Source of the DNA: Patescibacteria group bacterium
GTDB taxonomy: Bacteria > Patescibacteriota > Patescibacteriia > Patescibacteriales > UBA12465
Assembly: GCA_023229115.1 (NCBI GenBank)
Contig: JALNZW010000007.1
Location: 1,423 to 65,422 of the forward strand
Direction: 5' to 3'
Length of the DNA: 64,000 bases
Part shown: piece after piece, positions 3,240 to 63,621 of the stretch
Layout: each line of letters begins with the position of its first letter
Position numbering within the stretch: the first letter of the stretch is position 1
Position numbers and translations under genes: made by a program
Notes under the pieces: model-generated
Databases searched by the model: none
What the model was told of the DNA's origin: nothing
What the model saw: the letters and a program-made list of their open reading frames with translations, nothing else

Positions 3240-4397
3240 TTAAATTATCTTTCTTTTAATACTATGATTTAAGCCAGATAAAAGCTCATAACTTATAATG
3301 TTTATTTTATTGCTTAAATTTTGAATCGAATTATCCATATCATTATTATCAGAAAATATTTGCACTCTATCTCCAACATTAAAATCTTTGTTTAAAAAAT
3401 TTATACAACAAAGATTCATACAAACATTTCCAGCTATTTTCACCCAAAAAATTTCATTTTTATCTTTATTTTTATTGAACAAAAATTTTATACAACCAGA
3501 AAATCTTCTATCCAAACCCTCAAAATAACCAAAAGGAATAACAGCTATATTACAATCATCTTCAGCTACAAAACTATTACTATAAGACACTTTACTTCCC
3601 TTTTTAACCTTGTGTTTAGCTATAATAGTTGAATATAAGCTCAAGGCTGGTCTTAAAAAACTAGCCTTAGAGAAGTTTTTATCTTCCTTTAAGAAAGGAT
3701 TGTAGCCATAAAAAGCTATTCCCGGCCTAAAAGCATTGAAAATCTTATTATTTAAAACAAAAACACCAGCTGAATTACCTAAATGTATCCATTTAGGGTA
3801 TATTTTACTTCTGTGAAGTGTTTCTAGAGCATCTGTAAAACGCTTTTCTTGTTCTTGGTTAAAACTACTAGAATTATCATCGGCCTCGGCTAAATGAGAG
3901 CAAAAGCCGCTTATCTCTACTTTATTTAAGTATTTTTTATTATCATCAATAAAAAAATCTAAATCATCTATACCTTCCCTGTTCATCCCGCTATTAAAAA
4001 AAAGATGAATCTTAGCTTTTTTACCGTATCTAGATAGATATTTTAAAGTTTCTTTATTATAAACGATAAATTCAGTTCTTTTTAACTTACAATAACTATA
4101 AGCCTTAAGAGGCATTTCTCCTAATATTAGAACTTTACCAGGAAAATATTTATAAACTACCTGAGCCTCTGGAAAAGAATCAACAGCCACCATTTTAATA
4201 TTTGTTTTTTTTAAAATGTGACAAATTTCTTTTAATCCATGTCCGTAAGCATTTGACTTTAACACTGGAAAAATTTCAGCTTGCTCTTGTAACGACTGAA
4301 TATATTCTAAATTATGTAGAATATTTTTACTATTAATCTCTATCTGATTTAAAGTTTTATACTTTGGCTTGATTATTTTTCTAATTAAATTCAACAT
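3240..4397 (-). CDS. alr: Alanine racemase
   Basis: PLP-lysine motif VLKSNAYGHGL. Length of 385 aa and overall layout are typical of Alr. Confidence 0.9.
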   Translation of the reverse strand: MLNLIRKIIKPKYKTLNQIEINSKNILHNLEYIQSLQEQAEIFPVLKSNAYGHGLKEICHILKKTNIKMVAVDSFPEAQVVYKYFPGKVLILGEMPLKAYSYCKLKRTEFIVYNKETLKYLSRYGKKAKIHLFFNSGMNREGIDDLDFFIDDNKKYLNKVEISGFCSHLAEADDNSSSFNQEQEKRFTDALETLHRSKIYPKWIHLGNSAGVFVLNNKIFNAFRPGIAFYGYNPFLKEDKNFSKASFLRPALSLYSTIIAKHKVKKGSKVSYSNSFVAEDDCNIAVIPFGYFEGLDRRFSGCIKFLFNKNKDKNEIFWVKIAGNVCMNLCCINFLNKDFNVGDRVQIFSDNNDMDNSIQNLSNKINIISYELLSGLNHSIKRKII

Positions 4398-4496
4398 AAT
4401 TTTTTATTTTATATCTATAATTATATAAGGTTTAGTAAAATTTAGCAAATAAAAAATCTTTGAAATTTCAAAGATTTTATTAAAACTAACTAAAAT

Positions 4497-6362: not shown

Positions 6363-6415
6363 ATTTTTATAATTTAATTATACTCAATTTTTAAGCTAAA
6401 AGCAATCTAAATTAA

Positions 6416-8595: not shown

Positions 8596-9507
8596 TTAAT
8601 AGCTTATATTAATAACACTAATTTCTGGTGGATTAAATAACCTAAAAGGTAAAGCAACGTTACCTATACCAGGTGTTACAAATAAATTAATATTATTAAT
8701 ATTATAAAAACCTTTATCAAAATCATATTCACTAGGAATAATTTTCTTATAGAGAATGGGTAGTCTTATTTGACCAGCGTGAGTATGGCCAGAAATCATT
8801 AAATCAATTTTTTTATTATTTTCAACATCTTCTAACTCATAAACGGAGTCTGGATTATGGCTAAGCAAAAATATGAAAGAAATATCAGAAGAATCATCTC
8901 GAGCTAAAATAGAATAATCTGGGCTAGCCACCCAGATATCCTCTAAACCAATGAATTCTATTTTTTGTCCATTAATCTCTAATATTTTAATTTTATTATC
9001 AATCATCAAAACTCCATTTTTTTCCAAAGAAGATTTGATAATTTGAGAAACTTCACTTCCCTCTTTATCATAATCATGATTGCCCAAAACAGCTAACTTG
9101 GGTATATTTATTTCTTTTAAACTAGAGAAATAATCTTCCATTCTGTTTTTATCAGCAAAATAAACAAAATCACCTGGAATAAGAATTAAATCAGGTTTAA
9201 TTTTTTTTATTTTAGTGACAGCTCTTTCTAATAATATTTGTTTGTTATAAATACCAATGTGGATATCAGAAATAACGACAATTTTTAATTGATTCTTTAA
9301 GTTATTATCTCCAAAATTATAATTTTTAATTAACAATAAATTTGGTTCTAAGAATCTCATCCAAATAAAAAATAAACTTACAAAAAGCAAAAACAATATT
9401 TCAATAGAAAATCTTTTTTTCTTTTTAACTTGCCAAAGCAACAAAAAAATAAAAGGAAAAATAAAATACGAGCCATAATATATTAAACTTAGAAATATCT
9501 TGGTCAT
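8596..9507 (-). CDS. Membrane-associated metallophosphoesterase (calcineurin-like)
   Basis: Motifs ISDIHIG, PGDFV, GNHD and SGHTHAGQ. N-terminal TM helices are present. Confidence 0.8.
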   Translation of the reverse strand: MTKIFLSLIYYGSYFIFPFIFLLLWQVKKKKRFSIEILFLLFVSLFFIWMRFLEPNLLLIKNYNFGDNNLKNQLKIVVISDIHIGIYNKQILLERAVTKIKKIKPDLILIPGDFVYFADKNRMEDYFSSLKEINIPKLAVLGNHDYDKEGSEVSQIIKSSLEKNGVLMIDNKIKILEINGQKIEFIGLEDIWVASPDYSILARDDSSDISFIFLLSHNPDSVYELEDVENNKKIDLMISGHTHAGQIRLPILYKKIIPSEYDFDKGFYNINNINLFVTPGIGNVALPFRLFNPPEISVINISY

Positions 9508-9508
9508 T

Positions 9509-10759
9509 TTATTTTGAAGAAATTTTATCTAATTTAATCGGCAAAAACTTTTTGAGAATCTCTGGAATCAAAACACTACCATCCTCCTGTTGATTTTGCT
9601 CTAATATAGCTGGCAACAACCTAGAGGTAGCCAAGCCGGAAGCATTAAGCGTATGCAAAAATTCAATTTTTCCCTCTTTGTTCTTATAGCGCATATTACC
9701 TCGGCGAGCTTGATAATCTAAAGCATTAGAAACAGAGCTAACCTCTTTATAGATATTCATGCTAGGAATCCAAACCTCCAAATCAACCGTTTTAGCCATA
9801 GCCGAACTGCAATCACCAGCCGCCAAATCACTAATTTGGAAATGCAAACCAAGTCCTTCCAATAGTTTTGTGGCATAATTTTTCATTTCCTCAAAGGAGT
9901 TCCAAGAATCTTCTGCTTTTGTGTATTGGAACATCTCAATTTTATTAAATTGATGACCTCTAATCATACCCCTCTCCTCTTGACGATAGCTACCGGCTTC
10001 CCTTCTAAAACAAGCTGAATAAGCAAAATATTTTAAAGGCAGATCCTCTTCCTTAAGAATTTCATCGCGATGATAATTGCCCAACATCATTTCAGAGGTA
10101 GCGTTTAGACACAAACCATCTTCTACCCAAAAAAGATCGTCTCTAAACTTAGGCATATGTCCAGAGGCATAAGCCGATGCTTCATTTAATAAAAATGGAG
10201 GCAAAATAAAATTATAATTATTTTTTGTATGAAAATCTATAAAATAATTAAGTAATGCCCATTCCAATAATGCACCTTCTTTTTTATATATCCAAAAACC
10301 AGAGCCAGACATTTTAGCTGCCCTTTTATAATCAATAATATCCAAATTTTCAGCCAACTCAACATGATCTTTAGCTTTAAAAGAAAACTGAGGTTTTTCT
10401 TTAAAAGTGTAAGAAACTTTATTATTTTCTTTACCACCAGAGACAACTTCGTCTGCAACTATATTAGGTAAGCCCAACATTCTTTCTCTCAAATCATCTT
10501 CAACCTTTTTCAATTCTTCTTCTAAATTCTTAATATTAACATTATTTTCTTTAATATTTTTGATAGTTTCTTCGTCTGGTTTAGTTTTGGATAATTTATT
10601 TTTTTCAGCTTTTAAATTTTCCAACTTCCCAATCAACTCTTTTCGACTATCATCTAATTTTATTATTTTATCCAAACCCAAATCAACATCTCCCAATCTT
10701 TTTTTTAAAGAAATTTCTATGTCTTTAGTTTCCTCTCTTATTTTTTTTATATCTAGCAT
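9509..10759 (-). CDS. serS: Seryl-tRNA synthetase
   Basis: N-terminal coiled-coil arm plus class II core motifs (FRREAGSYRQEERGMIRGHQFNKIEMF; TLNASGLATSRLLPAILE). Confidence 0.95.
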   Translation of the reverse strand: MLDIKKIREETKDIEISLKKRLGDVDLGLDKIIKLDDSRKELIGKLENLKAEKNKLSKTKPDEETIKNIKENNVNIKNLEEELKKVEDDLRERMLGLPNIVADEVVSGGKENNKVSYTFKEKPQFSFKAKDHVELAENLDIIDYKRAAKMSGSGFWIYKKEGALLEWALLNYFIDFHTKNNYNFILPPFLLNEASAYASGHMPKFRDDLFWVEDGLCLNATSEMMLGNYHRDEILKEEDLPLKYFAYSACFRREAGSYRQEERGMIRGHQFNKIEMFQYTKAEDSWNSFEEMKNYATKLLEGLGLHFQISDLAAGDCSSAMAKTVDLEVWIPSMNIYKEVSSVSNALDYQARRGNMRYKNKEGKIEFLHTLNASGLATSRLLPAILEQNQQEDGSVLIPEILKKFLPIKLDKISSK

Positions 10760-10792
10760 ATTTTTATATTTCTCGTATTAACGATAAAAAAA

Positions 10793-12397
10793 TTAATTTA
10801 TTACTTGTCCACCAAAAGTCTTAAGAATATTTTCTATAGCCTCATTATTGGAGGACTTCATATTGCTCGGGTTATCATTTTTTGAATCTCCATCAATAAT
10901 AGCTTCAATTGTTAAATCAGTCTTATAAACATCTTTCAAAATTTTATTAATAATATTTTTTATTTCTGGATTATCCAACCTATCTTTATGAAGTTTATAC
11001 TTGAAAGCTAAACAAATTTTGTTAGAATTGATTGAACTTATTTGACAGGATTGCATAACAAAAGACAAGGAATGATTATGCGGTTTTAATTTCATTAAAA
11101 ATTCTGGCCATAAATTTAGTATTTCATCTAGACTCAAAATGCCTTTATTTAAACTAGACAAATTTGAAGATTCAATTTTTGAATGAGAACCTTCTTTGTC
11201 TTTTTCTTCAGAAACACTCTCATCTAAATTACTTTTGCTTATCTTTTTTTGAATTGGTTTAATATTTTCTAATTCAGGGTTTTTTTTAATATTATCAACT
11301 TTATTATTACCACAAAAATCAATAACACTTAATTCAACTGGCATTTGAGGTATAAAATGACTTCCAATATCCCTTAAATTATCTAAAAATTTTTCACTTA
11401 AAAATATCAATTCATTAATTTCAAACTGAGAGCTTAATTCACTAATTTTTATTTCCATTTTTTCACTCAAATCTAAGCCTAAAGTAGTTGATAAAGAATT
11501 GTTCATTTTAGATAATATCATTTTCCTAAGAAGCTCTATTAAGTCGGTTAAAAATATTTTTAAATTAACGCCATTTAAAAATAAATTATTTACCAATTCA
11601 ATAGCTGAAACAGCATCTTTCTTGCTTAAAAATTTTAGGAAATTAATATTTTCTTCTAGGTTGTTGTAAGGGATAACTAAGCTAGCGCTAGTCATATTTA
11701 TTTCATTGTCAGAAATAGATATTATTTGACTTAAAAGACTTTCAGCATCTCTTAAATGGCCATCTGACTTACTAGCTATTAATTCTAGCACTTCCCGATC
11801 CGCTTTTATCTTTTCTTTTTTAACAATATTTTCCAATTTCAAAATCATATCAGAAGTACTTATCTTTTTGAAATCAAATCTTTCACAACGAGAAATTATT
11901 GTTAGTGGTACTTTATAAGCTTCGGTAGTACAAAGTATAAAAATAACATTAGCTGGTGGCTCTTCTAGTGTTTTAAGGAGAGCATTAAAAGCCGACAAAG
12001 AGAGCATGTGCACCTCATCAATTATAAAAACCTTATACTTGTTATTAGTAGAAATAATTCTACTTAAAGAAATAATATTTTCCCTAACATTGTCAACTCC
12101 CGTATTGCTAGCGGCATCAATTTCAACAACATCTAAATTACTAAAACCATTAATACTAAGACAAGATTCACAATTATTACAAGGCTCATATTCATTTTCC
12201 TTTCTGTTTGTGCAATTAACTGCCTTAGCCAAAACTCTAGCTAAAGTTGTTTTGCCAACAGCCCTTGGTCCACAAAACAAATAAGCATGCGCAATTTTAT
12301 TGTGTAAAATTTCGTTTTGCAAGGTAATCTTTATATTGTTCTGTCCCAAAATTTCTGAAAATTTTTGAGGTCTATATTTCTGATATAAAACAGCCAT
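10793..12397 (-). CDS. dnaX: DNA polymerase III subunit gamma/tau
   Basis: YRPQKFSEILGQ...HAYLFCGPRAVGKTTLARVLAKAVNC, a zinc module CNNCESC, and the DEVHMLS box. Confidence 0.95.
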   Translation of the reverse strand: MAVLYQKYRPQKFSEILGQNNIKITLQNEILHNKIAHAYLFCGPRAVGKTTLARVLAKAVNCTNRKENEYEPCNNCESCLSINGFSNLDVVEIDAASNTGVDNVRENIISLSRIISTNNKYKVFIIDEVHMLSLSAFNALLKTLEEPPANVIFILCTTEAYKVPLTIISRCERFDFKKISTSDMILKLENIVKKEKIKADREVLELIASKSDGHLRDAESLLSQIISISDNEINMTSASLVIPYNNLEENINFLKFLSKKDAVSAIELVNNLFLNGVNLKIFLTDLIELLRKMILSKMNNSLSTTLGLDLSEKMEIKISELSSQFEINELIFLSEKFLDNLRDIGSHFIPQMPVELSVIDFCGNNKVDNIKKNPELENIKPIQKKISKSNLDESVSEEKDKEGSHSKIESSNLSSLNKGILSLDEILNLWPEFLMKLKPHNHSLSFVMQSCQISSINSNKICLAFKYKLHKDRLDNPEIKNIINKILKDVYKTDLTIEAIIDGDSKNDNPSNMKSSNNEAIENILKTFGGQVIN

Positions 12398-12406
12398 AAT
12401 TTTTAT

Positions 12407-13669
12407 TTATCTAATTGACCCTGAATAAGTTATCGCTTGCATGATGTTCCAATCTTCAGTTGTTTCTGGTAATTTATCGAAAATATCTTTAAAAATAGCG
12501 ATACCTTTAACCTCACTATTTAAGTTTCTATTTTCAGCTCTTTGTCTTAAACCATAAGCCATTATTTTTATAGCCGACATGTCCTTAACGTTATTTTCAT
12601 CAGCTTCTCTTTTATAGATAGTTCTAAACATTTCCCTAGCCCTCAATTCGGCCTCCTCATTATAGTTTTCTGGCCAACGACCGTTAGCTATTTTAATAGC
12701 ATCAGCTAATTCTTGCCCAGTTTCTGGTAATTTACCAAAAGCATTTTGAAAAGAATGAATAACAGCAGCTCTCTCTCCTTCTCCTAATTTTTTAGTATTT
12801 TCATCAACTCCATATGTTACAAAACTATTAATAGCGTTTCTAGCCTCTTCGCTAATTTTACTCATTTCCGTTATTAAGGATTTTAAATGAAGAATTTGAG
12901 CTTGTTGTTCTTTGATGATATTTCTTAATTCTCTTATTTCATTTAAGATTTGAGTCAAATTATTGTTTAACAATAAATTAGCTGATTCATTTATTTCTTC
13001 AATCATTTGATCGTTGGAAGTAGATTTACATTCACCCTCATAAGCCACAATTTGACCATATTGTTTTTCGGCTATACAACGATTAGAATAAGTTTTACCA
13101 TTCTTAGCACAAACAGGAGCATACTCTTTAGTGCAAGCGATCATCTCTTCTTTACACTCCCCCATATAAGCAAAACTTTGCTTAGCAGCGTTTAAAAAGC
13201 ATTTATTACTATAAGTTTTACCATCCTTACCACAAACTGGTGCATATTCTAAAGTACAGGCTACAGCATCTGTATTTTCACCACCTAAAGTCACTTTTAT
13301 TTGATTACTATAAACACCACATTTACCGCCCAAATATTCACAAACACGAACATAATAATTTCCAGCTCCACTAAAAGCCTCTAATGTATCAGAACTCTTG
13401 TTCGCATCTGTAAAATAATGATATTTATCTCCGCTTCTTAAAGGATAAGTTGGCCCTTCATTTTTTGACCAAACAACTTTAAATCCTTGATCAGAATAAC
13501 CATTAGTAGTCCAATATATTTTTGATCCGTCAGCCTTTAGAGCAATTGACTCTACAGAAGAATTGTCATGTTCTTCATTGACGTAAATAGCCTTAGCTTG
13601 ATCAATAAAAAACAAGCCAAAAGCAAGGAATAATGAAAGACCTGCTAACGTAAGCTTTTTAATATTCAT
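12407..13669 (-). CDS. Secreted protein with two tandem Kazal-type domains plus a C-terminal helical domain
   Basis: Signal peptide. [25 protein letters not shown]...GEC and [25 protein letters not shown]...GEC fit the Kazal cysteine/Tyr pattern (nt about 13028-13258). Confidence 0.75.
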
Positions 13670-19369: not shown

Positions 19370-19517
19370 ATTTTTATAATTAAATAATTTTATTATTAAA
19401 TAAAAATAATATCACTCTCATAATACCATATTTAATTAAAAAATAAAAAGTTGTTTAAAATTTATATAAGAAGGATTCAGATCTATAAATTTCGCTTGTC
19501 TTGTTTTGTTTTACGTG

Positions 19518-19536
19518 GCTCGGGGACTAGGATTCG
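19518..19536 (-). repeat. Exact 19-nt copy of the tRNA-Gln 3' end (T-loop C to discriminator +1); att-like direct repeat, distal copy
   Basis: gctcggggactaggattcg is identical to 28422-28440 and 20878-20896, in the same orientation as the tRNA gene. Confidence 0.8.
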
Positions 19537-19690
19537 GTCACGGTCACTAAGCCTCGCTCCCTCGCTTCGCTCATCGCTCGCTAAGCGCCCCGACCCGACC
19601 TCGCCTGTGCTCATTTCATTCGCACATGGCTCAGGCTTTCTCATCCTAGGCGCGAAGTGCGCAGGCACTTCGCTTCCCCTTCGCTCATTC

Positions 19691-19719
19691 AAAAAAACAC
19701 CCCAAAGGGTGTTTTTTTT
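19691..19719. terminator. Terminator-like 12-bp hairpin inside copy 1
   Basis: AAAAAAACACCC-CAAA-GGGTGTTTTTTT, flanked on both sides by CATTC. Confidence 0.5.
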
Positions 19720-19784
19720 CATTCGCTCGCCTGGAGAGACAGTTTTCGGACGTGGGTGGCTAATAATAAAGAATAATTTAGACA

Positions 19785-20765
19785 TCAATTCTTCATTTGT
19801 CTAACCTCAAAATCTACTAAATTATCTAAATTAAAATTTTCTCTCTCCGCCTCACATTCTCCTCTCTCTTTGTCTGGATAATTACTACAATTAGGGTACC
19901 GAGCTACAAATTGCACCAAGTAAACATTATCTTCTATTACTGTCGTATAAGCATATTGCGTATAGACAGATCCTACTGCTCCTTCGCTTGAAGCGCCTAT
20001 GCAATATTTCTGACCGTTTACCTGTCTCTTGCTTATTCGTAGCGGCAAACTTGATTCTAGGGGAGTTTCATCACACTCTATTTCACTATTTTCTACCCAA
20101 GACTCTAATTTAGGATATTCTTCGACATTAAATACGTTTGAGCCATAATTCTGAAATGAAATATAACTAGCCTTAAAGCTATCTGGTAGATTTGATTCTA
20201 TATTTCCTTCTTCAGTATATAAATGCTTAACTCCTTCTACTTTGATTGTACCTAAAGTTGTATAAATCTCACTTTCTTCGTTAATCAACTCTCCGCTAAT
20301 TTCTATTTTTTGTCCCATTCTTATTTTATTAACTACATTATTTTTATCGTCACTTGGCGCTTGCAAGCGATAATAATCACCATCATTATTCTTAACACCA
20401 AAGACGCATAAATCATTATGAGGCTCATCTTGATTTTTTACAGGTAAACAAACAAAATCTCCGGAGACAATGAATAAATCTTTATTTTCTAAATTCACTG
20501 CTTCATTGATGGATAAATTTCCACAATCACAAAGTATTTTTTTACCACACAAAGTTGACACGCTGTCACAAGGAACTTGAACATTATTATATTCTTTGCA
20601 TCCAAATAACCCTTCACAATTTTTTAAGCTAAATTCACAATATCCTTTTTCGGGATATGCCTTAAAATCGTTTTCACACTTATTTGGAATTAAAAAAAAT
20701 AAAGCAATAAAAATAAATAGTAAAGCAGCTAAAGAGTAGATTAAAATTTTGAATTCCTTTTTCAT
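19785..20765 (-). CDS. Secreted/membrane-anchored cysteine-rich protein, function unknown
   Basis: 326-aa ORF with N-terminal hydrophobic anchor and many Cys in the first about 90 and last about 80 residues. No family recognised. Confidence 0.55.
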   Translation of the reverse strand: MKKEFKILIYSLAALLFIFIALFFLIPNKCENDFKAYPEKGYCEFSLKNCEGLFGCKEYNNVQVPCDSVSTLCGKKILCDCGNLSINEAVNLENKDLFIVSGDFVCLPVKNQDEPHNDLCVFGVKNNDGDYYRLQAPSDDKNNVVNKIRMGQKIEISGELINEESEIYTTLGTIKVEGVKHLYTEEGNIESNLPDSFKASYISFQNYGSNVFNVEEYPKLESWVENSEIECDETPLESSLPLRISKRQVNGQKYCIGASSEGAVGSVYTQYAYTTVIEDNVYLVQFVARYPNCSNYPDKERGECEAERENFNLDNLVDFEVRQMKN

Positions 20766-20877
20766 ACTATTTTAAATTTAAATATTAACTATTTATATTA
20801 TAACATACCCCCTCCTTCTATCAAATAATATAAATCATAAATAAAAATACGCTATTATTAGCTTATTTTTATTATTC

Positions 20878-20896
20878 GCTCGGGGACTAGGATTCG
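20878..20896 (-). repeat. Exact 19-nt copy of the tRNA-Gln 3' end; att-like direct repeat, middle copy
   Basis: gctcggggactaggattcg is identical to 28422-28440 and 19518-19536. Confidence 0.8.
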
Positions 20897-21175
20897 GTCA
20901 CGGTCATCGCATAAAATGGCCTTGCCATCACGCGACCTCGCTAACAAAAACAACGTTGCTTTATAGGCGCCCTCCGCGTGCCGAAGGTTATACGCGGCTC
21001 CGGCTTTCTCGTCCTAAATGCCACGTATAGCTCACTTCGTTCGCACGTGGCTTCGCTCGTCGCTCGCTAAGCGCCCCGACCCGGCCTCGCCTGTGCTCAT
21101 TTCATTCGCACATGGCTCCGGCTTTCTCATCCTAGGCGCGAAGTGCGCAGGCACTTCGCTTCCCCTCACTCATTC

Positions 21176-21204
21176 AAAAAATCCAGCTTACACTGGATTT
21201 TTTT
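21176..21204. terminator. Terminator-like 11-bp hairpin inside copy 2
   Basis: AAAAAATCCAG-CTTACA-CTGGATTTTTT occupies the same position as the copy-1 hairpin. The stem sequence is different and the same CATTC flanks are present. Confidence 0.5.
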
Positions 21205-21610
21205 CATTCGCTCCGCACTCAGGTCTAGAAACTAATAAATAGGAGTTTTACAAGGGTTTTTGAATATATTTTATATACTAAAATAACGTAGTTCGGTCGG
21301 GGTCTGAAATTAAATGTTACAAATATTACACTATAAAAAGAAGTTTTTATCTTGAGAAATGTAAATAAGGTTATTATAATATTTTATTATGAAAAACACT
21401 TTTACTTTTCATATTTATATAAACTCCACCATTTAAAACACAAGCATGAATAATTATACAATTAAAATTTTCAAATATTTCTTTATTGTTATGTTTTCGC
21501 AAAGACTTATAATGAGTTGTTATTTCATTATCCATGCCCAATCCATGCCCAAAAAAAATATTATAATAGTAGTTGGCTAAATCCTGTTTTCATTTGACTC
21601 CATAATACTA

Positions 21611-21979
21611 TCAATTTTCATTCCAGAAAATAACTGTAGAGACAATAGCTCCTAAAAGCGAAACTATCTGCGATAAAATAATTTCAATATTATATTCTGA
21701 AATAATAAAAAAATAACTTAAATATAGAAGAGCCACAAACAAAGTTAATAAAATAGATGCTATTCTTTTATTGTTTGGAGCGACACTAAAACCAATAAAA
21801 ACAAAAATCATTCCGGAAAATAAATAGCTAAAATAACTTCCAAAAATTAAAAACACCCAACCATCGCCAAGCATGATCAGGAGAAATCTCGTATACAAAA
21901 AAGTAAAAATAATTGAACCCAAAAAAGATGCTGGCAAAACAACCATCCAAAGTAATATGTCCCTGATTTTTTTATTCAT
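21611..21979 (-). CDS. Small integral membrane protein (about 4 TM), orphan
   Basis: 122-aa ORF that is almost entirely hydrophobic helices. Confidence 0.5.
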   Translation of the reverse strand: MNKKIRDILLWMVVLPASFLGSIIFTFLYTRFLLIMLGDGWVFLIFGSYFSYLFSGMIFVFIGFSVAPNNKRIASILLTLFVALLYLSYFFIISEYNIEIILSQIVSLLGAIVSTVIFWNEN

Positions 21980-22019
21980 ATTATTTGCAAAAAGATAATA
22001 ATTAATTTAAATAGCATTC

Positions 22020-22826
22020 CTATCTAACAACAAACCTAGACATCTTCTCTTTACTCAACATTGTTAAAACAGAAAACAATGGAAACAGTAAACTATTAAT
22101 AGAAATTAAAATTCCTTCAGTTAAATTATTGCTATCTACTAGCCATTTAATATTATGTAATCCGTCATATATTATTAACTGAAATATTTCACGAAAAGAA
22201 AACGCGCACCAAATAAGGATAAAAACCCTTAGTATTATCTTTAATAAAGAATTTTTTGACAATAAATAAAAAATTATCAATATTAAAATAAAAATATAAT
22301 AGCTATTTATATGCCAAAAACCATAAGAAAGAAAATTATAAGTTATTGATATGAAAATAATTATTATACCCAAGAAAATTAAAGTATAATCTCTACTAGA
22401 TATTTCTGATATTTTTTTAAAATTGATAAATGACTGATTTTTTAAAAATATTAACCATTTTTTAAAATCATTTTTATATAAATATATTAAGGGAAATGCA
22501 GATGGGAGAAAACGTATTATGTCCGAATATTCAAAATAGTAACCTCCCCTTAATACAAAAAAGGTGATTAAAAGAATTGTTGAGAAAATAATCTTAGCTG
22601 GCAGGACAACCCAATTTTTTTTATAAAAAACAATATAAAGAGCAAGAATAAAAAATGACATTGGGAATAAAATAAACTCAATCATAATATTACCTGATAT
22701 TACTTCTTTCCATAACAAAAACAGAGAGACAAATATTAAAAAATAAGCAAACGCGATACTGACTAATCTTTTTAATTTATTTTTTTTCATAATTTTAATT
22801 ATTATATTTGTATTATTTAATAACAT
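22020..22826 (-). CDS. Integral membrane protein (multi-pass), orphan
   Basis: 268-aa ORF with 7 or more hydrophobic segments. The more likely start is MKKNKLKR at 22790. Confidence 0.5.
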   Translation of the reverse strand: MLLNNTNIIIKIMKKNKLKRLVSIAFAYFLIFVSLFLLWKEVISGNIMIEFILFPMSFFILALYIVFYKKNWVVLPAKIIFSTILLITFFVLRGGYYFEYSDIIRFLPSAFPLIYLYKNDFKKWLIFLKNQSFINFKKISEISSRDYTLIFLGIIIIFISITYNFLSYGFWHINSYYIFILILIIFYLLSKNSLLKIILRVFILIWCAFSFREIFQLIIYDGLHNIKWLVDSNNLTEGILISINSLLFPLFSVLTMLSKEKMSRFVVR

Positions 22827-22971
22827 TTCTATTAAGATTTTTTATAATTTCATCCATCGCCTCATCGAACTCTTTATTTTCTTCTGGTTTTAATTTAGCT
22901 CTTTTTAAGATAATCTGTAAACTCTTGTTTTCTAATCGCTCTTTTTTTAATTTTTTAGTTTTACTTTTCAT
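22813..22971 (-). CDS. Possible 52-aa charged helical protein (below ORF-track cutoff)
   Basis: Manual translation gives MKSKTKKLKKERLENKSLQIILKRAKLKPEENKEFDEAMDEIIKNLNRNVIK*. Its stop abuts or overlaps the next gene's start. Confidence 0.3.
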   Translation of the reverse strand: MKSKTKKLKKERLENKSLQIILKRAKLKPEENKEFDEAMDEIIKNLNRNVIK

Positions 22972-23181
22972 AATTTTGTAATTACTTTACAAATATAAAA
23001 AATCTTTTTTTATATTCTATTTAATATTTATATATTTATTTTTTAATGCTTATTTTTTCTAATTTTATCTAATTGATCTCAATAACATATCTATCCACAA
23101 ATCTAAAAACTAATAAATAAATCTTATAAAACTTTTTGAACATGCTTTATATATTCAAAAACATATTTTAATCGATAATTA

Positions 23182-23721
23182 TTATTTTATCCAAATCATG
23201 TTATTACTATAAAAAAAATTAAAAAAAATATAATTTTTTCTAATTAATCTAAAAGCAAAATAAAAAGATAAATAATAAACTAATTTAGTGAATAGCCATA
23301 AAAAAGATAAAGAAATAATAAAAATTTTAAGCCAAAAAACAATATTGTTATAATAAAAAGAAATAAGCATTCCAATCACTACTAACAAAACCGAGAAAAA
23401 AATCGTTTGCCTTCCTTTTGAAAATTTTCCTTTTAAAATAAACCAAGAAAACAAAATAAAAGGAATAACCAAAAAAGAAAACCAATTAAAAACAAAAATA
23501 GAAGATATAATACTAAAAACAAGAGATAGCGGTTCTAAAAAAAACATTACTAATCTAATAAAAAAAGTTTCAAATTTTAAAAAATTACCAACATTTTTTT
23601 TAATATCTGAACTATTTGTTTCGGTAAAAAAACTTCTAAACCCAGCCAAGTCTAAATAAATAGTATGTTCGCCAGAATTATACTTTTCAATTATTTCTTT
23701 GTATTGATCTATTGTTACCAT
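23182..23721 (-). CDS. Membrane protein with short soluble N-terminal domain, orphan
   Basis: 179 aa. About 55 N-terminal soluble residues are followed by 4 hydrophobic helices. Confidence 0.5.
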   Translation of the reverse strand: MVTIDQYKEIIEKYNSGEHTIYLDLAGFRSFFTETNSSDIKKNVGNFLKFETFFIRLVMFFLEPLSLVFSIISSIFVFNWFSFLVIPFILFSWFILKGKFSKGRQTIFFSVLLVVIGMLISFYYNNIVFWLKIFIISLSFLWLFTKLVYYLSFYFAFRLIRKNYIFFNFFYSNNMIWIK

Positions 23722-23751
23722 ATATTTAAAAATACTTTAAATTAATTTTTT

Positions 23752-24162
23752 TTATTTTTTTAAATTACCATTTTTAATTTCATTTAATTCCCTTTTTAAT
23801 TTATTTGTTTTAATCTTAACGTAAACAAGACCGGGAACAATAGACACAACAACAATTAAAAGACCAATCTTAAAATTTTGTGTAGTTACTATAAAAGAAA
23901 CACTTAAAACAACACTTAATATGAAAAATGCAAACAATGAAATTAAATAAGGATATAAGTCCAAAAAAATATAAAAAAGATTTGACTTTCTATTACTCTC
24001 ACCAGAAATCAAATCAGTTCTCATTTTTAACACTTCTCTATTTGAAACATTAAAATCTCGTAAGAGTGTATTAACTAAATTTTCGTTTTTTCCTATTTCT
24101 TTTAAGATTTTAATTCTTGTTCCATGCTCCAATTCTTGATATTCTTTTATTAATTTAATCAT
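23752..24162 (-). CDS. Membrane protein with helical N-terminal domain, orphan
   Basis: 136 aa. A soluble N-terminus (MIKLIKEYQELEHGTRIKILKEIG...) is followed by 2 TM helices. Confidence 0.5.
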   Translation of the reverse strand: MIKLIKEYQELEHGTRIKILKEIGKNENLVNTLLRDFNVSNREVLKMRTDLISGESNRKSNLFYIFLDLYPYLISLFAFFILSVVLSVSFIVTTQNFKIGLLIVVVSIVPGLVYVKIKTNKLKRELNEIKNGNLKK

Positions 24163-24232
24163 ATCTTTATATTATTTTTAAACGATTCTTCCATATTATT
24201 TTATTTAAATATATAAATTAATTTGTCTCACT

Positions 24233-24646
24233 TCAAATAACAAAACTTAACAATAACAGGAAAAGACCAAACAATAAAGAAAATCCAAATAACAACAATG
24301 ATAGAATTTGTGTATTTTCTTTAAAAAGAGCTGTTATTCCCCCAGTTATAAGCCAGCCATAAATAGCACCAAATATAACCCAATACCATTTAATAAAAAA
24401 GAAAGATGCCGTAAAAGATAAAAATATAGAAATAATTGCAGCGATCATTATAAAGCTTGAATAACTCTTGAAAGATAGCCCAATTCGCCAACCCTCTTTT
24501 TTTGCATAACCCCCATAACCATTAATTAAAAGGCCGGAAATAAAAATAACAAACAAAAAAATCAAAATATTGCTTATGTTAGTAAAAATAAACCAAATAA
24601 CAAATAAATTTATGGCAATAAACAATATACCAAATATTTTTCTCAT
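24233..24646 (-). CDS. Small integral membrane protein (4 TM), orphan
   Basis: 137-aa hydrophobic ORF. Confidence 0.5.
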   Translation of the reverse strand: MRKIFGILFIAINLFVIWFIFTNISNILIFLFVIFISGLLINGYGGYAKKEGWRIGLSFKSYSSFIMIAAIISIFLSFTASFFFIKWYWVIFGAIYGWLITGGITALFKENTQILSLLLFGFSLLFGLFLLLLSFVI

Positions 24647-24660
24647 AATATTATATAATA

Positions 24661-25431
24661 TTAATTTTTATATTTTTTTGTCTCTGCTTTAAACCACTTT
24701 CTTATATCCCTAGAACTAACTTCTTTTCTAAAAAAGAAGCACTTGCTCTTATTTTCTTCTGGCACAACATAATCAATAAGGCTTTTGCCATGTTTTGTGC
24801 CGCAATGAACTTGATGAACAAAATCTTTTTTATATTTTTCATTATTAAATTCACAATAAAATATTTCCGTATCATTATCTAAAACAAAGGTATGAGAATC
24901 GCCATGTCCAACAAAAAAAACTTCTCTCACATTATCATCTGCCATTATTTTATAAACATCATCTATTGAAGCATTTAAATAAAAAGAGAAATCATTACCT
25001 CTTTTTAATTCTAAATATTTAATAATAGCCTTTACATCCAGCAAATAATAATTGCCCTTAACTGCATATTTAAAGGTATATCTACCAAAATGTGCCATAA
25101 TTACAACCGCAGTTTTTACACAGTCCTTGTTATAATCTTCTAAAAATTTAGCGACTTTTTTAATGTTATCATTTTCACACCAATACAGCATTCCGAAAAT
25201 TGGAAAAAATAGTATCTTATATAAACTAGCCTCCCTTATAATTAAAATAGAAAAAATAACTAATATTAAATATATAGATAATAAATAATAAAAAGGAAAA
25301 TAGAATTTAACACCAAGAGAAAACGATAGAGAGTGGGAAATAAAAGCAGAAAATGATAAAAACATTATTAAAGAAAAGAAAAAACCTACAAGAACTCTTT
25401 TTTCATGTTTAATAGATTCTTTTAATTTCAT
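24661..25431 (-). CDS. Membrane-anchored protein with C-terminal soluble domain of unknown function
   Basis: 256 aa with 3 N-terminal TM helices. The soluble domain contains VFFVGHGDSH and VHQVHCGTKHG (a possible His/Cys pair after hydrophobic strands). No family assignment. Confidence 0.45.
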   Translation of the reverse strand: MKLKESIKHEKRVLVGFFFSLIMFLSFSAFISHSLSFSLGVKFYFPFYYLLSIYLILVIFSILIIREASLYKILFFPIFGMLYWCENDNIKKVAKFLEDYNKDCVKTAVVIMAHFGRYTFKYAVKGNYYLLDVKAIIKYLELKRGNDFSFYLNASIDDVYKIMADDNVREVFFVGHGDSHTFVLDNDTEIFYCEFNNEKYKKDFVHQVHCGTKHGKSLIDYVVPEENKSKCFFFRKEVSSRDIRKWFKAETKKYKN

Positions 25432-25518
25432 AAATAATTATAAATTAATACTATAGTGTTCATCCTTAATAAGTAAACTTTTAAAACAACTCACTATCAA
25501 ATCAGTAAATTGAAGAAC

Positions 25519-26454
25519 TTAATTTGTGTCACCAAATGGCACAAAAACAGAAGGAACGTTATTTACGCCATTAATATTCTTTTTTTGATCGTCAAAGTAT
25601 ATATGAGGATTTAATGTTTCCAATATATTTTTTTTCTTCGTTGTTCCCAAAAAAAATGATTGGTCAATATCGATCCCCCAAGATTCCAAGGTGTGAATTG
25701 CTCTTTCATGGGCAGGAGCGCTTCGAGCAGTAACTAATATGATTTTTATAGCACGTTTATATCTTTTACTCCCTTCTAATTTTAAAGATTCCAATTTTCT
25801 TAATTCAACTATTTTTTTAGCAAAATCTTGCAACGGCCCAGGTTTAAGTGGTTTATATGATTTCTTAATTTCTGATTTTTGGTATTTTTTTAAACCTTTG
25901 CCTCTATAAATCTTTTCTGATTCATCATCAGCAAGAACTCCGTCAAAGTCAAAAGCTATTCTCAATTCTTTTTCTTCATCACCAACAATTCTGTCTGTCT
26001 CGTCTCTCAAAACCATACCAGCAGGATATCCGCCATCAACAGCCAACTTAACATCTTGAAAGTTGGCAGATAAAAACAATGAAGCGTTAAAAGCTTCAAT
26101 GTATCTATAAGGAGATTCACCTGAAAAAAAACCAGCCTTTTGAATATCCAGTTTATAATGTTGTATAGATTTAAACACGCGCAAGCCGGTTTCGTGACTA
26201 TTCCTAGACAACAACACAACCTCCACTACTCCACTAGGAACCTCCTTTTTAAAAACACTATTAAGTTTTAATATTCTCTTAATAAAAGGAAATGCTATTC
26301 CTTCTTTTAATATTTTATCTAAATTTTTATTTTGAAATTTTCTATAAGCAACCGCACCCTTTTCTTTAAACACCTTGTCAGAATCACTTAAATCAAACAG
26401 AGCGCTAGAGGCGATTGCTATTATTAATTTCTCAAATTTTTTAGCTTTTTTCAT
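25519..26454 (-). CDS. 5'-nucleotidase, cytosolic cN-IA-like family (HAD-type)
   Basis: 311 aa. IAFDFDGVLADDESE (the DxDx[T/V] HAD motif I) and ILVTARSAPAHERAIHTLESWGI fit the bacterial pfam06189-type layout as I recall it. Confidence 0.6.
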   Translation of the reverse strand: MKKAKKFEKLIIAIASSALFDLSDSDKVFKEKGAVAYRKFQNKNLDKILKEGIAFPFIKRILKLNSVFKKEVPSGVVEVVLLSRNSHETGLRVFKSIQHYKLDIQKAGFFSGESPYRYIEAFNASLFLSANFQDVKLAVDGGYPAGMVLRDETDRIVGDEEKELRIAFDFDGVLADDESEKIYRGKGLKKYQKSEIKKSYKPLKPGPLQDFAKKIVELRKLESLKLEGSKRYKRAIKIILVTARSAPAHERAIHTLESWGIDIDQSFFLGTTKKKNILETLNPHIYFDDQKKNINGVNNVPSVFVPFGDTN

Positions 26455-26520
26455 ATAAAATTATTAGAATATTTAAAAAATCAAGTATATATACTAATTT
26501 AAACAAAAAAAATGTTGGTT

Positions 26521-27285
26521 TTACATATTTGATGACCGAGGAACAAGAGATTTGATAATATCTTCTATTTTGTTTAATTCATTATCTAAATTTTTCAAAA
26601 AATAATGATTAAATTCCTTTAAGATTTCCAAACATACAAAAACAGAAGATAACAAAGACTCATTAACTAAATTATTGCTTGGGCTGATGGATAGTGTTAA
26701 CTCTTTTTTATTTCCTTCTTTAAAATACTCATTCGTACTTCTAGGATTTGGATGAGATAGCATGCATGAAATTTTATACCAAGTATTATAAACACCTTTT
26801 AAACCAAATTTTTCTGCCATTTTATAAGTGCTAATATCTGACCATCCTTTTTTTGGATCAAAATTATATTTTCTTTGAACTCTATTGTATTGTTTAATTA
26901 TTTCTTGAATCACTTTATGATCCATATTCAAATTAAAATTTAGTTGATTTTTGTCATACATCTCCTTTCTAACAACCCAATCATATTCGAAAAACCTTTC
27001 TGCCAAAGAATCATCTCCAACAGATAGAATATATTTAAGGGAAAAATATAACTCTAAAACACTTCTACTAAGAATAACTGCATCCTCTCCAAAGCCTTTT
27101 TGACATAACAGCGATATAGCTTCTAGTGTTTTTTTAGATTTTGCGACTGCAAACAGAAAAAAGGCGTCTTTTTTATGTTTAGGCTCTTTGTGTTTATTTA
27201 CTACAATAACAAAAATATTTTGTAATTTCTCTATTGTTTCATATATTTTATTATCACCAAAAATTTGACTGTTAGAAGCACACAT
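26521..27285 (-). CDS. DUF5677-like protein (tentative)
   Basis: TLEAISLLCQKGFGEDAVILSRSVLELYFSLKYI and later W.D.S...MAEKFGL...Y...S.LSHP resemble the DUF5677 pattern from memory. This was not verified by search. Confidence 0.4.
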   Translation of the reverse strand: MCASNSQIFGDNKIYETIEKLQNIFVIVVNKHKEPKHKKDAFFLFAVAKSKKTLEAISLLCQKGFGEDAVILSRSVLELYFSLKYILSVGDDSLAERFFEYDWVVRKEMYDKNQLNFNLNMDHKVIQEIIKQYNRVQRKYNFDPKKGWSDISTYKMAEKFGLKGVYNTWYKISCMLSHPNPRSTNEYFKEGNKKELTLSISPSNNLVNESLLSSVFVCLEILKEFNHYFLKNLDNELNKIEDIIKSLVPRSSNM

Positions 27286-27421
27286 ATTTTATTATAAATT
27301 ATTAAGACTTATTAATTCATTTAAACTACATTAATTTTTTTGACATTAGGACAAACATGTTCAACAATCTAACAATTGAATAGCCTAAATTTATTTTTTT
27401 AATTTAAACAATAATATAAAT

Positions 27422-27790
27422 CTAAAAGAGATTTTTAAGTTCTTTTATAATAAAATAAACAGTAAATATCAACACAATAATTAGTCCAAGTCCAAGCCAT
27501 TTATACTCAGATGCAAAAACTGAAAAAAATAATTGAGAAAGAGCTACTAAAACCTGAACAATTGCAACTATAGACAAAACAGTAGAAAACCTTCTTGTAT
27601 CCTCACCAGAATCTTCTAAACTTTTTCTGTTTCTTAAAATAGATTGAATCTGGAGCTTTCTAAATAGATGAGTAGCATCAACAGAATAAGAATGATCTAA
27701 TTCTTTTAATATATCACTATCCTCTTCTAGATATTTGCTTTTTTCTTTTTTGTCAGACATAAATTTTATATTACACCTCCATTTTACCAC
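27422..27790 (-). CDS. Small protein with C-terminal 2-TM anchor, orphan
   Basis: 122 aa. The more likely start is MSDKKEK at 27760. Confidence 0.45.
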   Translation of the reverse strand: MVKWRCNIKFMSDKKEKSKYLEEDSDILKELDHSYSVDATHLFRKLQIQSILRNRKSLEDSGEDTRRFSTVLSIVAIVQVLVALSQLFFSVFASEYKWLGLGLIIVLIFTVYFIIKELKNLF

Positions 27791-27969
27791 TAAAAATACA
27801 TAGTATCAAGATAAAATTACAATGAACTATTAAGTTTTTTTCAACCTTTTTTGCACCCCATTTTAAATACTTTTAACGCCTTTGACTAAAAAAACCTGGC
27901 ATCTGCCAAGTTTTCTTTTTACCCCTATAAAACAAGGGCTTAAGCTCGGTCGCTTTTACCGAATTTGTC

Positions 27970-27997
27970 TGCTCGGAGACTGGGACAAGATTGGAAC
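27970..27997 (-). repeat. Degenerate remnant of the tRNA-Gln 3' end (possible decayed att copy)
   Basis: Compare tgctcggagactgggacaagattggaac with the tRNA region tgctcggggactagg-------attcgaac. They share the tgctcgg.gact.gga and att.gaac ends, with an internal insertion. Confidence 0.35.
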
Positions 27998-28064
27998 TTT
28001 TTTGTAAGAAAAAAGGCCTCTTCAACAAAGAAAAGGCCTTATGACTGATTACTGTAAATCGAGT

Positions 28065-28343
28065 TTAAAGCTTTGAGAATTCAGAGCATGCTTTGTAAAT
28101 TTTCGATCCGACAAAGCCTCTTAAAACTTCACTTTTTGTACCATCTTCATTGAGACTTTCTATAAACTCCACAAATGGCACTACTTCGCGTGGTTTGTGT
28201 AAATCGTTTAAATACTTAACAGTATTTTTAATTAAAGAATCTTCGTCAGTCTCAGAAAAAAGTAATTCTTTTCCAAGCCATTTTGATAAAGGTCCATTAA
28301 TTACAGTCACGCCATAGGTTATCAAAAACCATTTTTTACTCAT
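28065..28343 (-). CDS. Hypothetical 92-aa protein
   Basis: ORF with GGAGGAAA Shine-Dalgarno-like sequence upstream (plus-strand tttcctcc at about 28352-28359). No family. Confidence 0.5.
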   Translation of the reverse strand: MSKKWFLITYGVTVINGPLSKWLGKELLFSETDEDSLIKNTVKYLNDLHKPREVVPFVEFIESLNEDGTKSEVLRGFVGSKIYKACSEFSKL

Positions 28344-28422
28344 CTTTTTTTCCTCCTTATTGATTAGTATCTTGTTAATGAATACAAAAAATATAGCATA
28401 AAGCTATATTTTTGTCAATGTG

Positions 28423-28493
28423 CTCGGGGACTAGGATTCGAACCCAGATAAACAGGACCAGAACCTGTTGTCCTACCATTAGACGATCCCCGA
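28423..28493 (-). tRNA. tRNA-Gln (anticodon CUG), CCA not encoded
   Basis: Manual cloverleaf: acceptor TCGGGGA/TCCCCGA (U1:A72, G73 as expected for Gln), D arm GTC-TAATGGTA-GGAC, anticodon arm ACAGG-TTCTGGT-CCTGT, variable TTAT, T arm CTGGG-TTCGAAT-CCTAG. 71 nt. Confidence 0.9.
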
Positions 28494-63222: not shown

Positions 63223-63621
63223 TTATTTCAAACAAGAGTTAGCAGAAATTATCTCTCCTGCTGTTGGTGAAGAGCCACCAATAATCTCACTGGCCCTTTC
63301 TTGTCCTAATTTTTCTATAAAACATTTTTGCATTTCCGGTGTAATTTCTGATGGTAATTTTGAAGTATCAACCCCAACTGATTCTAACATCACTTCTTGC
63401 TCTGAATTTAGCAAAGGATTTCTGTCAATATTAGGATCAACTGATTCTCTTTGAAAAATCAAATTTTTAGTCGTAGAAAATAATGATTGATCTTCTGGAA
63501 TAAAGGTTTTTAAATTAAAAGGATCAAACACAAAAAAATAAATAACCCCTAAAATTAAAATAAAAAATATCACTCCCAAAAAAACAAAAAAAACATTTAA
63601 AATCTTTAATAATAGTTTCAT
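63223..63621 (-). CDS. Hypothetical membrane-anchored protein
   Basis: 132 aa with an N-terminal TM helix. The soluble C-terminal domain has 2 Cys. Confidence 0.45.
   Translation of the reverse strand: MKLLLKILNVFFVFLGVIFFILILGVIYFFVFDPFNLKTFIPEDQSLFSTTKNLIFQRESVDPNIDRNPLLNSEQEVMLESVGVDTSKLPSEITPEMQKCFIEKLGQERASEIIGGSSPTAGEIISANSCLK

Follow-up and report, generated by a model that had tools for sequence, protein, structure and literature searches.

Structured mini-elements that copy the 3' end of an adjacent tRNA gene mark the units of an integrase-free array in Patescibacteria

We analysed a 64,000-nucleotide stretch of a Patescibacteria group bacterium contig (JALNZW010000007.1, positions 1,423 to 65,422; assembly GCA_023229115.1), here called the window, in which a tandem array of genes and short GC-rich elements follows the 3' end of a tRNA-Gln(CUG) gene, the sole tRNA of the window according to ARAGORN and Rfam. 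The array is tied to this tRNA by a 19-mer, GCTCGGGGACTAGGATTCG (on the tRNA strand, CGAAUCCUAGUCCCCGAGC), present as three exact plus-strand copies at 19518–19536, 20878–20896 and 28422–28440; the window holds no further match even when up to three mismatches are allowed, and three matches were reached in none of 100 shuffles. The copy at 28422–28440 is the last 18 nt of tRNA-Gln plus one flanking base. In tRNA terms the 19-mer runs from C56-G57-A58-A59-U60 through the T-stem 3' strand CCUAG and the acceptor 3' strand UCCCCGA to the discriminator G and a flanking C. The two downstream copies agree over 29 nt, ten bases beyond the 19-mer (an extra GTCACGGTCA), and each adjoins a stretch of ~57–66% GC in a window of 29% GC. 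A preliminary description, made from the letters of this DNA alone, had reported three same-strand copies of the 3' end of this tRNA, extending from the T-loop through the acceptor 3' strand and discriminator to one flanking base, each downstream copy directly beside a GC-rich stretch; exact-match counts and the sequence bear this out. Its view of the repeats as duplicated tRNA 3' ends such as border insertions at tRNA genes is likewise supported, as direct repeats of the tRNA 3' segment flank inserted DNA both here and in relatives.

Read along the tRNA strand, the order is tRNA, cargo block 1, a pseudo-core, element B, cargo block 2, a weaker pseudo-core, element A and a DUF333 gene. Between 16.9 and 31.1 kb every open reading frame (ORF) is encoded on the tRNA strand, and a terminator-like hairpin opens cargo block 1 directly after the tRNA. 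The features are as follows; hp1, P1-5', P1a, PT, P1, P2 and P3 denote parts of the fold set out below.

28423–28493 (start 28422/28423), minus: tRNA-Gln(CUG) by ARAGORN, Rfam tRNA 58 bits; anchor of the array
21231–28421, minus: cargo block 1, ~7.2 kb with ~10 co-oriented ORFs; absent in haplotype H2 (see below)
26521–27285, minus: DUF5677 gene (Pfam), adjoining the PDC-S08 gene of the next line
25519–26454, minus: 5'-nucleotidase-family gene, matching the PADLOC candidate defence family PDC-S08 (E 2.7e-120)
21210–21230, minus: tRNA-3'-end-like pseudo-core TTCTAGACCTGAGTGCGGAGC, closing cargo block 1
20878–21209, minus: element B, 332 nt, with its 19-mer tail at 20878–20896
21176–21204, minus: element B, hp1 hairpin, flanked by GAGCGAAUGA and GAAUGAGUGA
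21161–21165, minus: element B, P1-5', GGGGA
21138–21159, minus: element B, P1a hairpin with CUGC loop
21116–21134, minus: element B, motif 1, UAGGAUGAGAAAGCCGGAG
21073–21091, minus: element B, motif 2
20998–21016, minus: element B, motif 1b, TAGGACGAGAAAGCCGGAG, of a nested second module (20934–21068)
20896–20904, minus: element B, P3 3' strand
19785–20765, minus: cargo block 2, a 326-aa ORF, hydrophobic at its N-terminus and lacking a Pfam match, between the two elements
19725–19749, minus: possible degenerate tRNA-3'-like remnant CCGAAAACTGTCTCTCCAGGCGAGC, closing cargo block 2
19518–19724, minus: element A, 207 nt, with its 19-mer tail at 19518–19536
19691–19719, minus: element A, hp1
19675–19679, minus: element A, P1-5', GGGGA
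19652–19673, minus: element A, P1a with CUGC loop
19643–19648, minus: element A, PT 5' strand, UAGGAU
19637–19642, minus: element A, junction GAGAAA
19598–19636, minus: element A, P2
from 19595 (5' strand) and 19536–19544 (3' strand), minus: element A, P3
19528–19533, minus: element A, PT 3' strand, AUCCUA, followed by G
19522–19526, minus: element A, P1 3' strand, UCCCC

The preliminary description divided this region into a 7.5-kb and a 1.3-kb unit. The sizes are correct, but a partition into two is too simple, each unit being a cargo block together with a separate mini-element. Related loci or contigs are designated here by L-numbers, and elements within a locus by E-numbers. The succession of gene, pseudo-core and element recurs in L075, L080 and L081, and with composites of cargo, pseudo-core and element the two units become four or more, so that the window array comprises at least four tandem units anchored on tRNA-Gln. 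The first pseudo-core has the layout of a tRNA 3' end (T-loop 7, T-stem 5, acceptor 7, discriminator, then C) and only GAGC in common with the real core; we tentatively assign it as a tRNA-3'-like remnant. The second, for which counterparts occupy the same place elsewhere (a homologous CCGAAAACTATCCCTCCAAGCGAGC in L075, TTCGAACTTCGTCCACGACCCCGAGC in related species), might be a remnant of the same kind. At cargo ends or downstream of arrays we also observed a recurring sequence, TTCGAAC..GTC...GACC(C/T)CGAGC or bare AGTTCGAATCC (L011 6520–6552; L080 8765–8790; L081 6613–6640; L018 ~825–840; L030 ~655–670), which resembles a tRNA 3' end whose central part has been exchanged and could be a remnant of an older att site.

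The two GC-rich stretches are related: elements A and B have a 117-nt core in common, at 97% identity. From 5' to 3' the core consists of UAGGAY, GAGAAA, P2, two junction bases, P3, GA, and RUCCUA with the remainder of the tRNA copy. The body folds into a three-way junction closed by helix PT, in which UAGGAY of motif 1 pairs with RUCCUA of the tRNA copy. P2 opens with GCC and ends with GGC, enclosing an internal loop (GGA/GA), a helix of 3 bp and a variable hairpin; P3 consists of ~9 bp around a variable hairpin. The tail of element A thus contributes C to the last P3 pair, GA to the junction, AUCCUA(G) to PT and UCCCC to P1, with GAGC as overhang. Modelled in this way, PT and P1 together make a ~12-bp stack with a 4-nt overhang, the geometry of a tRNA acceptor/T-stem minihelix. 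Unconstrained minimum-free-energy folds of element A and of the elements in L052 and L068 give the full architecture (P1, PT, P2 and P3, in A also P1a), and that of L026, whose 5' end is cut, reproduces PT, P2 and P3. Element B holds in addition a diverged copy of the core as a nested second module, which takes the place expected for the P3 hairpin of the first. ORFs of 64–117 aa span the elements in the window (19483–19788, minus; 19451–19804, plus; 21018–21242, plus) and likewise in L001–L007 and L080–L085, where public annotation includes them as genes ('100 aa', '64 aa'); in all likelihood they are spurious.

Support for the fold comes from covariation among 25 distinct elements. Because the inner hairpins vary in length, plain MAFFT/RNAalifold recovered only P1a and P2, and we instead aligned anchored segments of fixed length, leaving out the variable hairpin interiors. 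In this alignment 92.2% of cells pair, as against 30–40% when partners are slid by one to three columns, and double-sided changes occur at eight pairs, the observed values being reached in 0 of 500 shuffles. The search patterns had fixed motif 1 and portions of motifs 2 and 3, so that only free columns count as evidence. The sixth PT pair (6–52) is C-G in 13 elements, U-A in 10 and U.G in one. In element E3 of L080 the second PT pair changes from A-U to G-C (UAGGAU/AUCCUA to UGGGAU/AUCCCA), and in E1 of both L080 and L081 PT is lengthened to 8 bp, GGGAUUCG with CGAAUCCU. Two pairs of P3 are near-invariantly G.U (23/25 and 16/25); read on the opposite strand they would become A.C mismatches, which points to the tRNA-sense strand as the folding strand. 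Upstream of motif 1 many members carry P1a, with 11 distinct stems of 9/9 bp and two of 8/9, all closed by a CUGC loop. Distal tails have decayed beyond PT in L042, L077, L079 and L032, with PT largely kept. Because a small structure model placed the window copies against an internal pseudo-tail, it served only to count copies; its weak match at 63271–63308 (minus; 16.2 bits, E 0.024) lies in apparent coding sequence and is probably due to chance.

Between hp1 and P1a, many members carry a complement of the acceptor 3' strand of the tRNA (P1-5'). As RNAduplex and run tests tolerant of G.U pairs proved too noisy in GC-rich sequence, we relied on a strict Watson-Crick test. Perfect runs extend to 13 nt in L027 (Val), 11 in L026 and L077 (Tyr), 9 and 8 in Gln members and 7 in a Tyr variant and in Asn, against a mean of 4.2 nt and a maximum of 5–7 for non-cognate runs; in elements of the window type the complement is only GGGGA. 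In the window type, on inspection, the two flanks of hp1 could form a helix rich in tandem G.A pairs. In L027 and L038 the tRNA 3' end, hp1 and the complement together span a near-palindrome, so that the complement could also pair with the upstream copy. P1-5' and P1a are accessory, since they are missing in L035, L076 and L017. L080 E3 matches its own tail better than the local tRNA-Gln, indicating that tail and body evolve as one unit.

Elements A and B, ~210–330 nt long and GC-rich, belong to a widespread family. A scan with the motif TAGGAYGAGAAAGCCNGAG over one genome per species gave 32 matches, where by our own arithmetic ~35 would be expected by chance for that many specified bases; 23 are real, standing in the same tRNA context. 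A scan of metagenomes added ~25 real members among 30 matches. Members occur in Parcubacteria/Paceibacterota, Yanofskybacteria, Saccharibacteria, many Elusimicrobia and one Pseudobdellovibrionaceae metagenome-assembled genome (MAG); a cultivable host, Parelusimicrobium proximum Dip518 (NZ_CP015019), has one behind tRNA-Val. Nearly all assessable members lie within ~110 nt 3' of a co-oriented tRNA or of the previous unit, and intact distal tails copy the 3' end of the adjacent tRNA, starting at or near C56. Such tails match tRNAs for Gln(CUG), Gln(UUG), Tyr, Lys, Asn, Arg, Val and Leu. Before the elements of L068 (3081–3154) and L072 (844–917), ARAGORN reports a 'tRNA-Stop (tta)'; its anticodon loop, CUUUUAAG, is that of the tRNA-Lys(UUU) in L052, and the call may be shifted instead of marking a suppressor tRNA. 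At the gathering threshold, Rfam 15 returned only tRNA matches in the window and 15 related loci, and matches at E-values up to 10 were weak and unrelated. IMG/VR, searched with two patterns, and collections of phages and plasmids gave no match. We thus found this conserved, folded mini-element in no RNA family library and described in no paper of the literature searched.

The arrangement is polymorphic at this very locus. Contigs encoding exactly the DUF333 protein and the 296-aa protein that flank the region fall into three haplotypes. H1 (the window, L012, L013, L002, L003 and L006) reads tRNA, 7.2-kb cargo, B, 19-mer, 326-aa gene, A, 19-mer, DUF333 and MFS genes. In H2 (L001) the tRNA ends ...CCCCGAGC and is followed directly by element B, GAATGAAAAAAATCC, the remainder being like H1. 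H3 (L011 and L014) reads tRNA, B, 19-mer, 340-aa gene, 267-aa gene and MFS gene, with neither element A nor DUF333. Element B therefore stands directly after the tRNA in L001, L011 and L014, and, as it can by itself (314 nt) occupy the interval between two 19-mers, it constitutes a separate unit. The presence or absence of cargo block 1 falls exactly between ...CCCCGAGC and GAATGA, with flanks 99–100% identical. The outer flanks of H3 are 99.4–99.9% identical to the window, whereas the stretch from element B through the between-element gene is only ~90% identical. L071 has another element variant, of a single module, at the position of B, with the downstream flank of B and the same neighbour genes (91–99% amino-acid identity). 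The preliminary description had stated that an identical arrangement in all relatives would speak against integration; the three haplotypes differ, and do so at the repeat boundaries.

Relatives bear further signs of movement. Identical tandem units stand behind tRNA-Tyr (L026), tRNA-Lys (L052) and tRNA-Gln (L064), and L032 and L065, which represent one locus, hold two element types in opposite order. Within one MAG, two bodies that are 99.3% identical have different tails, diverging right after CGAATCCT (L036 and L043). A single 157-kb contig carries bodies of 92% identity behind tRNA-Gln and tRNA-Tyr, each with the matching complement (L050, L059).

No candidate enzyme for such movement was found in the array. 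As the preliminary description had it, no recombinase lies between the repeats: Pfam, PHROGs and PADLOC profile searches of the ORFs of 19.5–28.5 kb revealed no integrase, transposase or phage protein. The one recombinase of the window (1017–1994, minus), which it had placed outside the island, is confirmed by Pfam as a Phage_integrase/SAM-like, Xer-type tyrosine recombinase; the other scanned window ORFs of at least 280 aa are housekeeping genes or lack a Pfam match, and include no second recombinase. TnpB, IscB, IS110, Cas and reverse transcriptase (RT)-like genes are absent among the scanned window ORFs and near ~45 copies of the element. Across roughly 45 related loci no recombinase was found within ~4 kb except in L037, an Elusimicrobiaceae array with two adjacent, diverged tyrosine integrase genes (4311–5378 and 5518–6570). 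The second ends ~10 nt before a copy of the tRNA-Gln 3' end, beyond which lie a family element and a degenerate one; the integrase island itself has no folded body, and nothing comparable was seen in Patescibacteria. The loci have no neighbour protein family in common, only local synteny and the spurious ORFs over the elements. Xer-like recombinases were also observed 4–5 kb from a tRNA-Arg element in a Saccharibacteria genome (L017, L066 and L078); that of the window scores ~259 bits against the Saccharibacteria protein (L017 452–1366), and the two are probably housekeeping orthologues.

The cargo is variable. The PDC-S08 match and its DUF5677 neighbour suggest that cargo block 1 may be a small defence island. 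At the position of the 326-aa gene of cargo block 2, related strains and species have genes of 340, 344, 415 and 422 aa (L011 4631–5653; L001 502–1536; L080 7484–8731; L081 5315–6583), which may encode a fast-evolving surface protein. Elsewhere the cargo between units comprises a BrnT/BrnA-like pair (L043, by sequence inspection), pilin-like genes and, in L080, a restriction-modification system. L080 and L081, one species from two samples, differ downstream of the array (9254–12891 and 6861–7020, respectively): L080 has an N6/N4 methyltransferase, a DpnII-family endonuclease and an AAA/SMC-like gene, and L081 runs straight to a GTPase gene.

We interpret these units as non-autonomous mobile mini-elements that target the T-loop of tRNA genes, carry a structured RNA and are moved in trans, a reading in which we place about as much belief as doubt. 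Elements with no recombinase of their own would target the segment of a tRNA gene from the T-loop to the 3' end, through a Campbell-type (or equivalent) insertion geometry with its boundary at C56. Each unit would supply, on its tRNA-proximal side, a replacement tRNA 3' end and a terminator-like hairpin, and would displace the original 3' end to its distal side, where it is left behind and causes the 19-mer to be repeated. The displaced segment would become a strand of the conserved fold on the tRNA-sense strand, closing the three-way junction; in many members the upstream acceptor complement would extend the closing helix into a ~12-bp stack, like that of acceptor and T-stem, with a short 3' overhang. 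New units and their cargo would enter beside the tRNA and push older ones outward. The folded strand would be RNA rather than single-stranded DNA (ssDNA), and the catalyst would be encoded elsewhere, a tyrosine recombinase being our default guess. On this account, gene arrays seem to be built at tRNAs across phyla with no integrase on board. Among the options raised by the preliminary description (decayed islands, satellites mobilised in trans, or a different use of the tRNA-derived sequence), the last comes closest to the data, as the 19-mers are integral strands of a conserved fold behind many tRNAs.

Several observations weigh against this interpretation. We found no autonomous relative combining the same folded body with an enzyme. 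A terminator-like hairpin separates the tRNA from the body and no obvious promoter follows it, so that expression of the body is putative. A tRNA-Gln with no element, the empty site, was seen in no relative, and insertion of the mini-element itself is thus inferred rather than observed. The boundaries of cargo block 1 have only GAGC in common, so a different mechanism is possible for that event. The pairing of tRNA-Gln and element beside LysRS is common to several related species, which fits long residence as well as mobility. Finally, all members were retrieved through one exact motif of 18–19 nt, which biases the sample and fixes some columns of the alignment.

Of the alternatives, we consider first an RNA-guided integration, which we think unlikely. 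The RNA of the element would guide an effector encoded elsewhere, its bipartite complement pairing with the tRNA-sense target strand; the distal tail would be the copy of the target left by insertion, and retargeting would proceed by a change of guide. The complement does track tRNA identity, over up to 13 nt and even between bodies of 92% identity on one contig, the scaffold is conserved across phyla, and the covariation of PT and P1 fits pairing with a same-sequence target as well as pairing with the tail in cis. However, the missing TnpB, IscB, IS110, Cas or RT-like gene, the lack of a match to omega RNA (HEARO) or any other Rfam family and the absence of P1-5' from L035 and L076 all count against a guide, and the better fit of L080 E3 to its own tail than to the local tRNA favours pairing in cis. 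In its full form, two internal segments of a programmable RNA would recognise the final ~20 nt of a tRNA gene, and the RNA, with an enzyme from outside the unit, would direct the insertion of itself and its cargo at the T-loop, which we regard as similarly doubtful; it would mean that Patescibacteria, Elusimicrobia and predatory bacteria have in common an RNA-guided, tRNA-anchored cassette system retargeted by rewriting the complement.

The synteny of LysRS and tRNA-Gln across related species would instead fit a resident gene: a host non-coding RNA in the tRNA trailer, co-transcribed with the tRNA and cut out by tRNA-processing enzymes by virtue of its acceptor/T-stem-like stack, with arrays and cargo differences arising from local duplication and homologous exchange, for example after DNA uptake, in which tRNA and element serve as homology arms. 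This, too, strikes us as improbable. It would agree with an element whose start coincides with the tRNA 3' processing site and whose end falls on a discriminator-like position, with the ~12-bp stack and its 4-nt overhang, with the 96% identity of element B to the element of L024 where LysRS is ~87% identical at the protein level, and with the ~90% identical between-element gene of L011 inside flanks that are >99% identical. It leaves unexplained why tail and complement match whichever tRNA adjoins, across seven tRNA types, why one genome has 99.3% identical bodies with different tails, and how identical tandem units and the swapped order came about.

A folded ssDNA recombination site, like integron attC or CTX-phage attP, could be used by a host tyrosine recombinase to move cassette-like units, the pairing of complement and tail rebuilding a duplex that mimics the 3' end of the tRNA gene. 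We give this somewhat less credence still. Co-oriented genes arrayed like cassettes, their cargo including toxin-antitoxin and candidate defence genes, the existence of cargo-free units, the lack of an integrase in cis, the Xer-type recombinases in the window and 4–5 kb from the Saccharibacteria copies, and the near-palindrome of tRNA 3' end, hp1 and complement in L027 and L038 would all suit such a site. In attC sites it is the shape rather than the sequence that is conserved; the sequence here is conserved, a GTTRRRY-type boundary is absent, and strongly conserved junctions, a tandem G.A-type internal loop and near-invariant G.U pairs are more typical of RNA. Nor are Xer proteins known to act at tRNA genes, which counts against this alternative.

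Plain decay, in which the 19-mers would be att scars of two integrase-borne islands that have lost their integrases and the GC-rich stretches attP arms, would fit the direct repeats, the tandem layout, the absence of an integrase, the integrase-bearing island of L037 and the remnants and stacked insertions described for tRNA-targeting elements (10.1101/2020.12.28.424599; PMC3146451), but it is very improbable, for it leaves the tRNA-matching complement unexplained and the GC-rich ends are conserved across phyla with compensatory changes and occur between two repeats with no island at all.

Three further candidates were rejected. A group I intron is at odds with the intact tRNA, and the duplication cannot supply both a 5' exon that ends in U and an intron whose last base is G, a case that the paper on Patescibacteria introns does not treat; the cores of hammerhead and other small ribozymes differ, on inspection, in junction lengths and sequences; and for the homing guide of a type V-K CRISPR-associated transposon there are no Cas12k/Tns genes and the element starts 0 nt from the target.

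Stacked islands that lack an integrase are common at tRNA genes, and how they are constructed is usually left unexplained. In the arrays described here, the boundary marker is a conserved, structured and apparently mobile module that adapts to its tRNA and, in ultra-small bacteria, lies on either side of variable genes for surface proteins, toxin-antitoxin systems and candidate defence functions. Should the fold be an RNA cofactor or a folded recombination site, it would offer a testable handle on gene flux in Patescibacteria and Elusimicrobia and an RNA or DNA structure family absent from Rfam 15. A practical consequence concerns annotation, as public gene calls place spurious ORFs of 64–100 aa over the elements.

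Among known systems, structured scaffolds at an element end beside a target-pairing segment are found in the omega RNA of TnpB and IscB, the bridge RNA of IS110 and the exon- and intron-binding sequences (EBS–IBS) of group II introns. The elements resemble these in having a scaffold beside a 17–20 nt segment identical to the target and internal segments that co-vary with the flanking target. They differ in that no effector gene was found, the target-like segment is paired into the scaffold, Rfam yields no match, and the duplication is 19 nt where it is none or 2 nt there. IS200/IS605-TnpB elements and PATEs insert 3' of a short motif, make no target duplication and keep a free 3' guide, whereas here 19–20 nt are duplicated and the first 6–8 nt of the tail are paired to motif 1; neither tnpA(Y1) nor tnpB occurs among the scanned window ORFs and the related loci examined. 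In place of the separate target and donor loops of bridge and seek RNAs there is one junction with small internal loops, and no scanned ORF encodes a DEDD recombinase (IS110/IS1111). Guide-bearing RNAs of mobile elements are the subject of the OMEGA review (PMC13565253). The same ~12-bp coaxial stack with a short 3' overhang, formed from the two ends of a larger RNA, characterizes tRNA-like minihelix RNAs (the tmRNA domain, YrlA, viral 3' structures and mascRNA-type signals); in contrast to these, a junction with two additional arms here stands in for the T-loop, the stack reproduces the adjacent tRNA and there is no Rfam match.

Integron arrays consist of co-oriented genes with folded attC sites and grow by array-proximal insertion, and the CTX phage borrows the host enzyme XerCD. 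The present arrays are like them in their co-oriented genes between folded elements, proposed array-proximal entry, empty units and a presumed enzyme outside the unit. Unlike integrons, they have no IntI, attI or Pc and are anchored on a tRNA, with LysRS and the 296-aa protein, which has no Pfam match, as neighbours; and their sites are not imperfect palindromes with R and L boxes and a GTTRRRY core but sequence-conserved three-way junctions with G.U pairs, invariant motifs and GAGC/GAAT boundaries. Non-autonomous integrative elements, whether cis-mobilizable elements, satellites or derivatives like miniature inverted-repeat transposable elements (MITEs), resemble the window units in having att-type repeats on both sides and no recombination genes. 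They are presumed to be moved in trans (review of integrative mobilizable elements, PMC5704250). Such elements arise by deletion from a parent that can be recognised, whereas here we found no parent sharing the body, and the body is a conserved structure, not leftover arms.

The array behaves like stacked islands that target tRNA or tmRNA genes, such as the Prochlorococcus tycheposon and Dehalococcoides ssrA islands, which have the same duplication from T-loop to 3' end and a stacking like that proposed here. Insertion sublocations within tRNA genes reportedly fall into classes, including a T-loop class, in Williams's scheme of 2002. In stacked islands of this type the tRNA 3' segment is duplicated on both sides, newer insertions push older ones outward and partial tRNAs are left scattered (10.1101/2020.12.28.424599; PMC3146451). 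We class the window array among tRNA-anchored integrative arrays, as one that lacks the integrase and carries a structured module we found described nowhere. Compared with those islands, it has no integrase, its smallest unit is ~200 nt and one module serves at least seven tRNA types; and the distal end of each unit is a conserved folded module that uses the duplicated tRNA segment in its helix.

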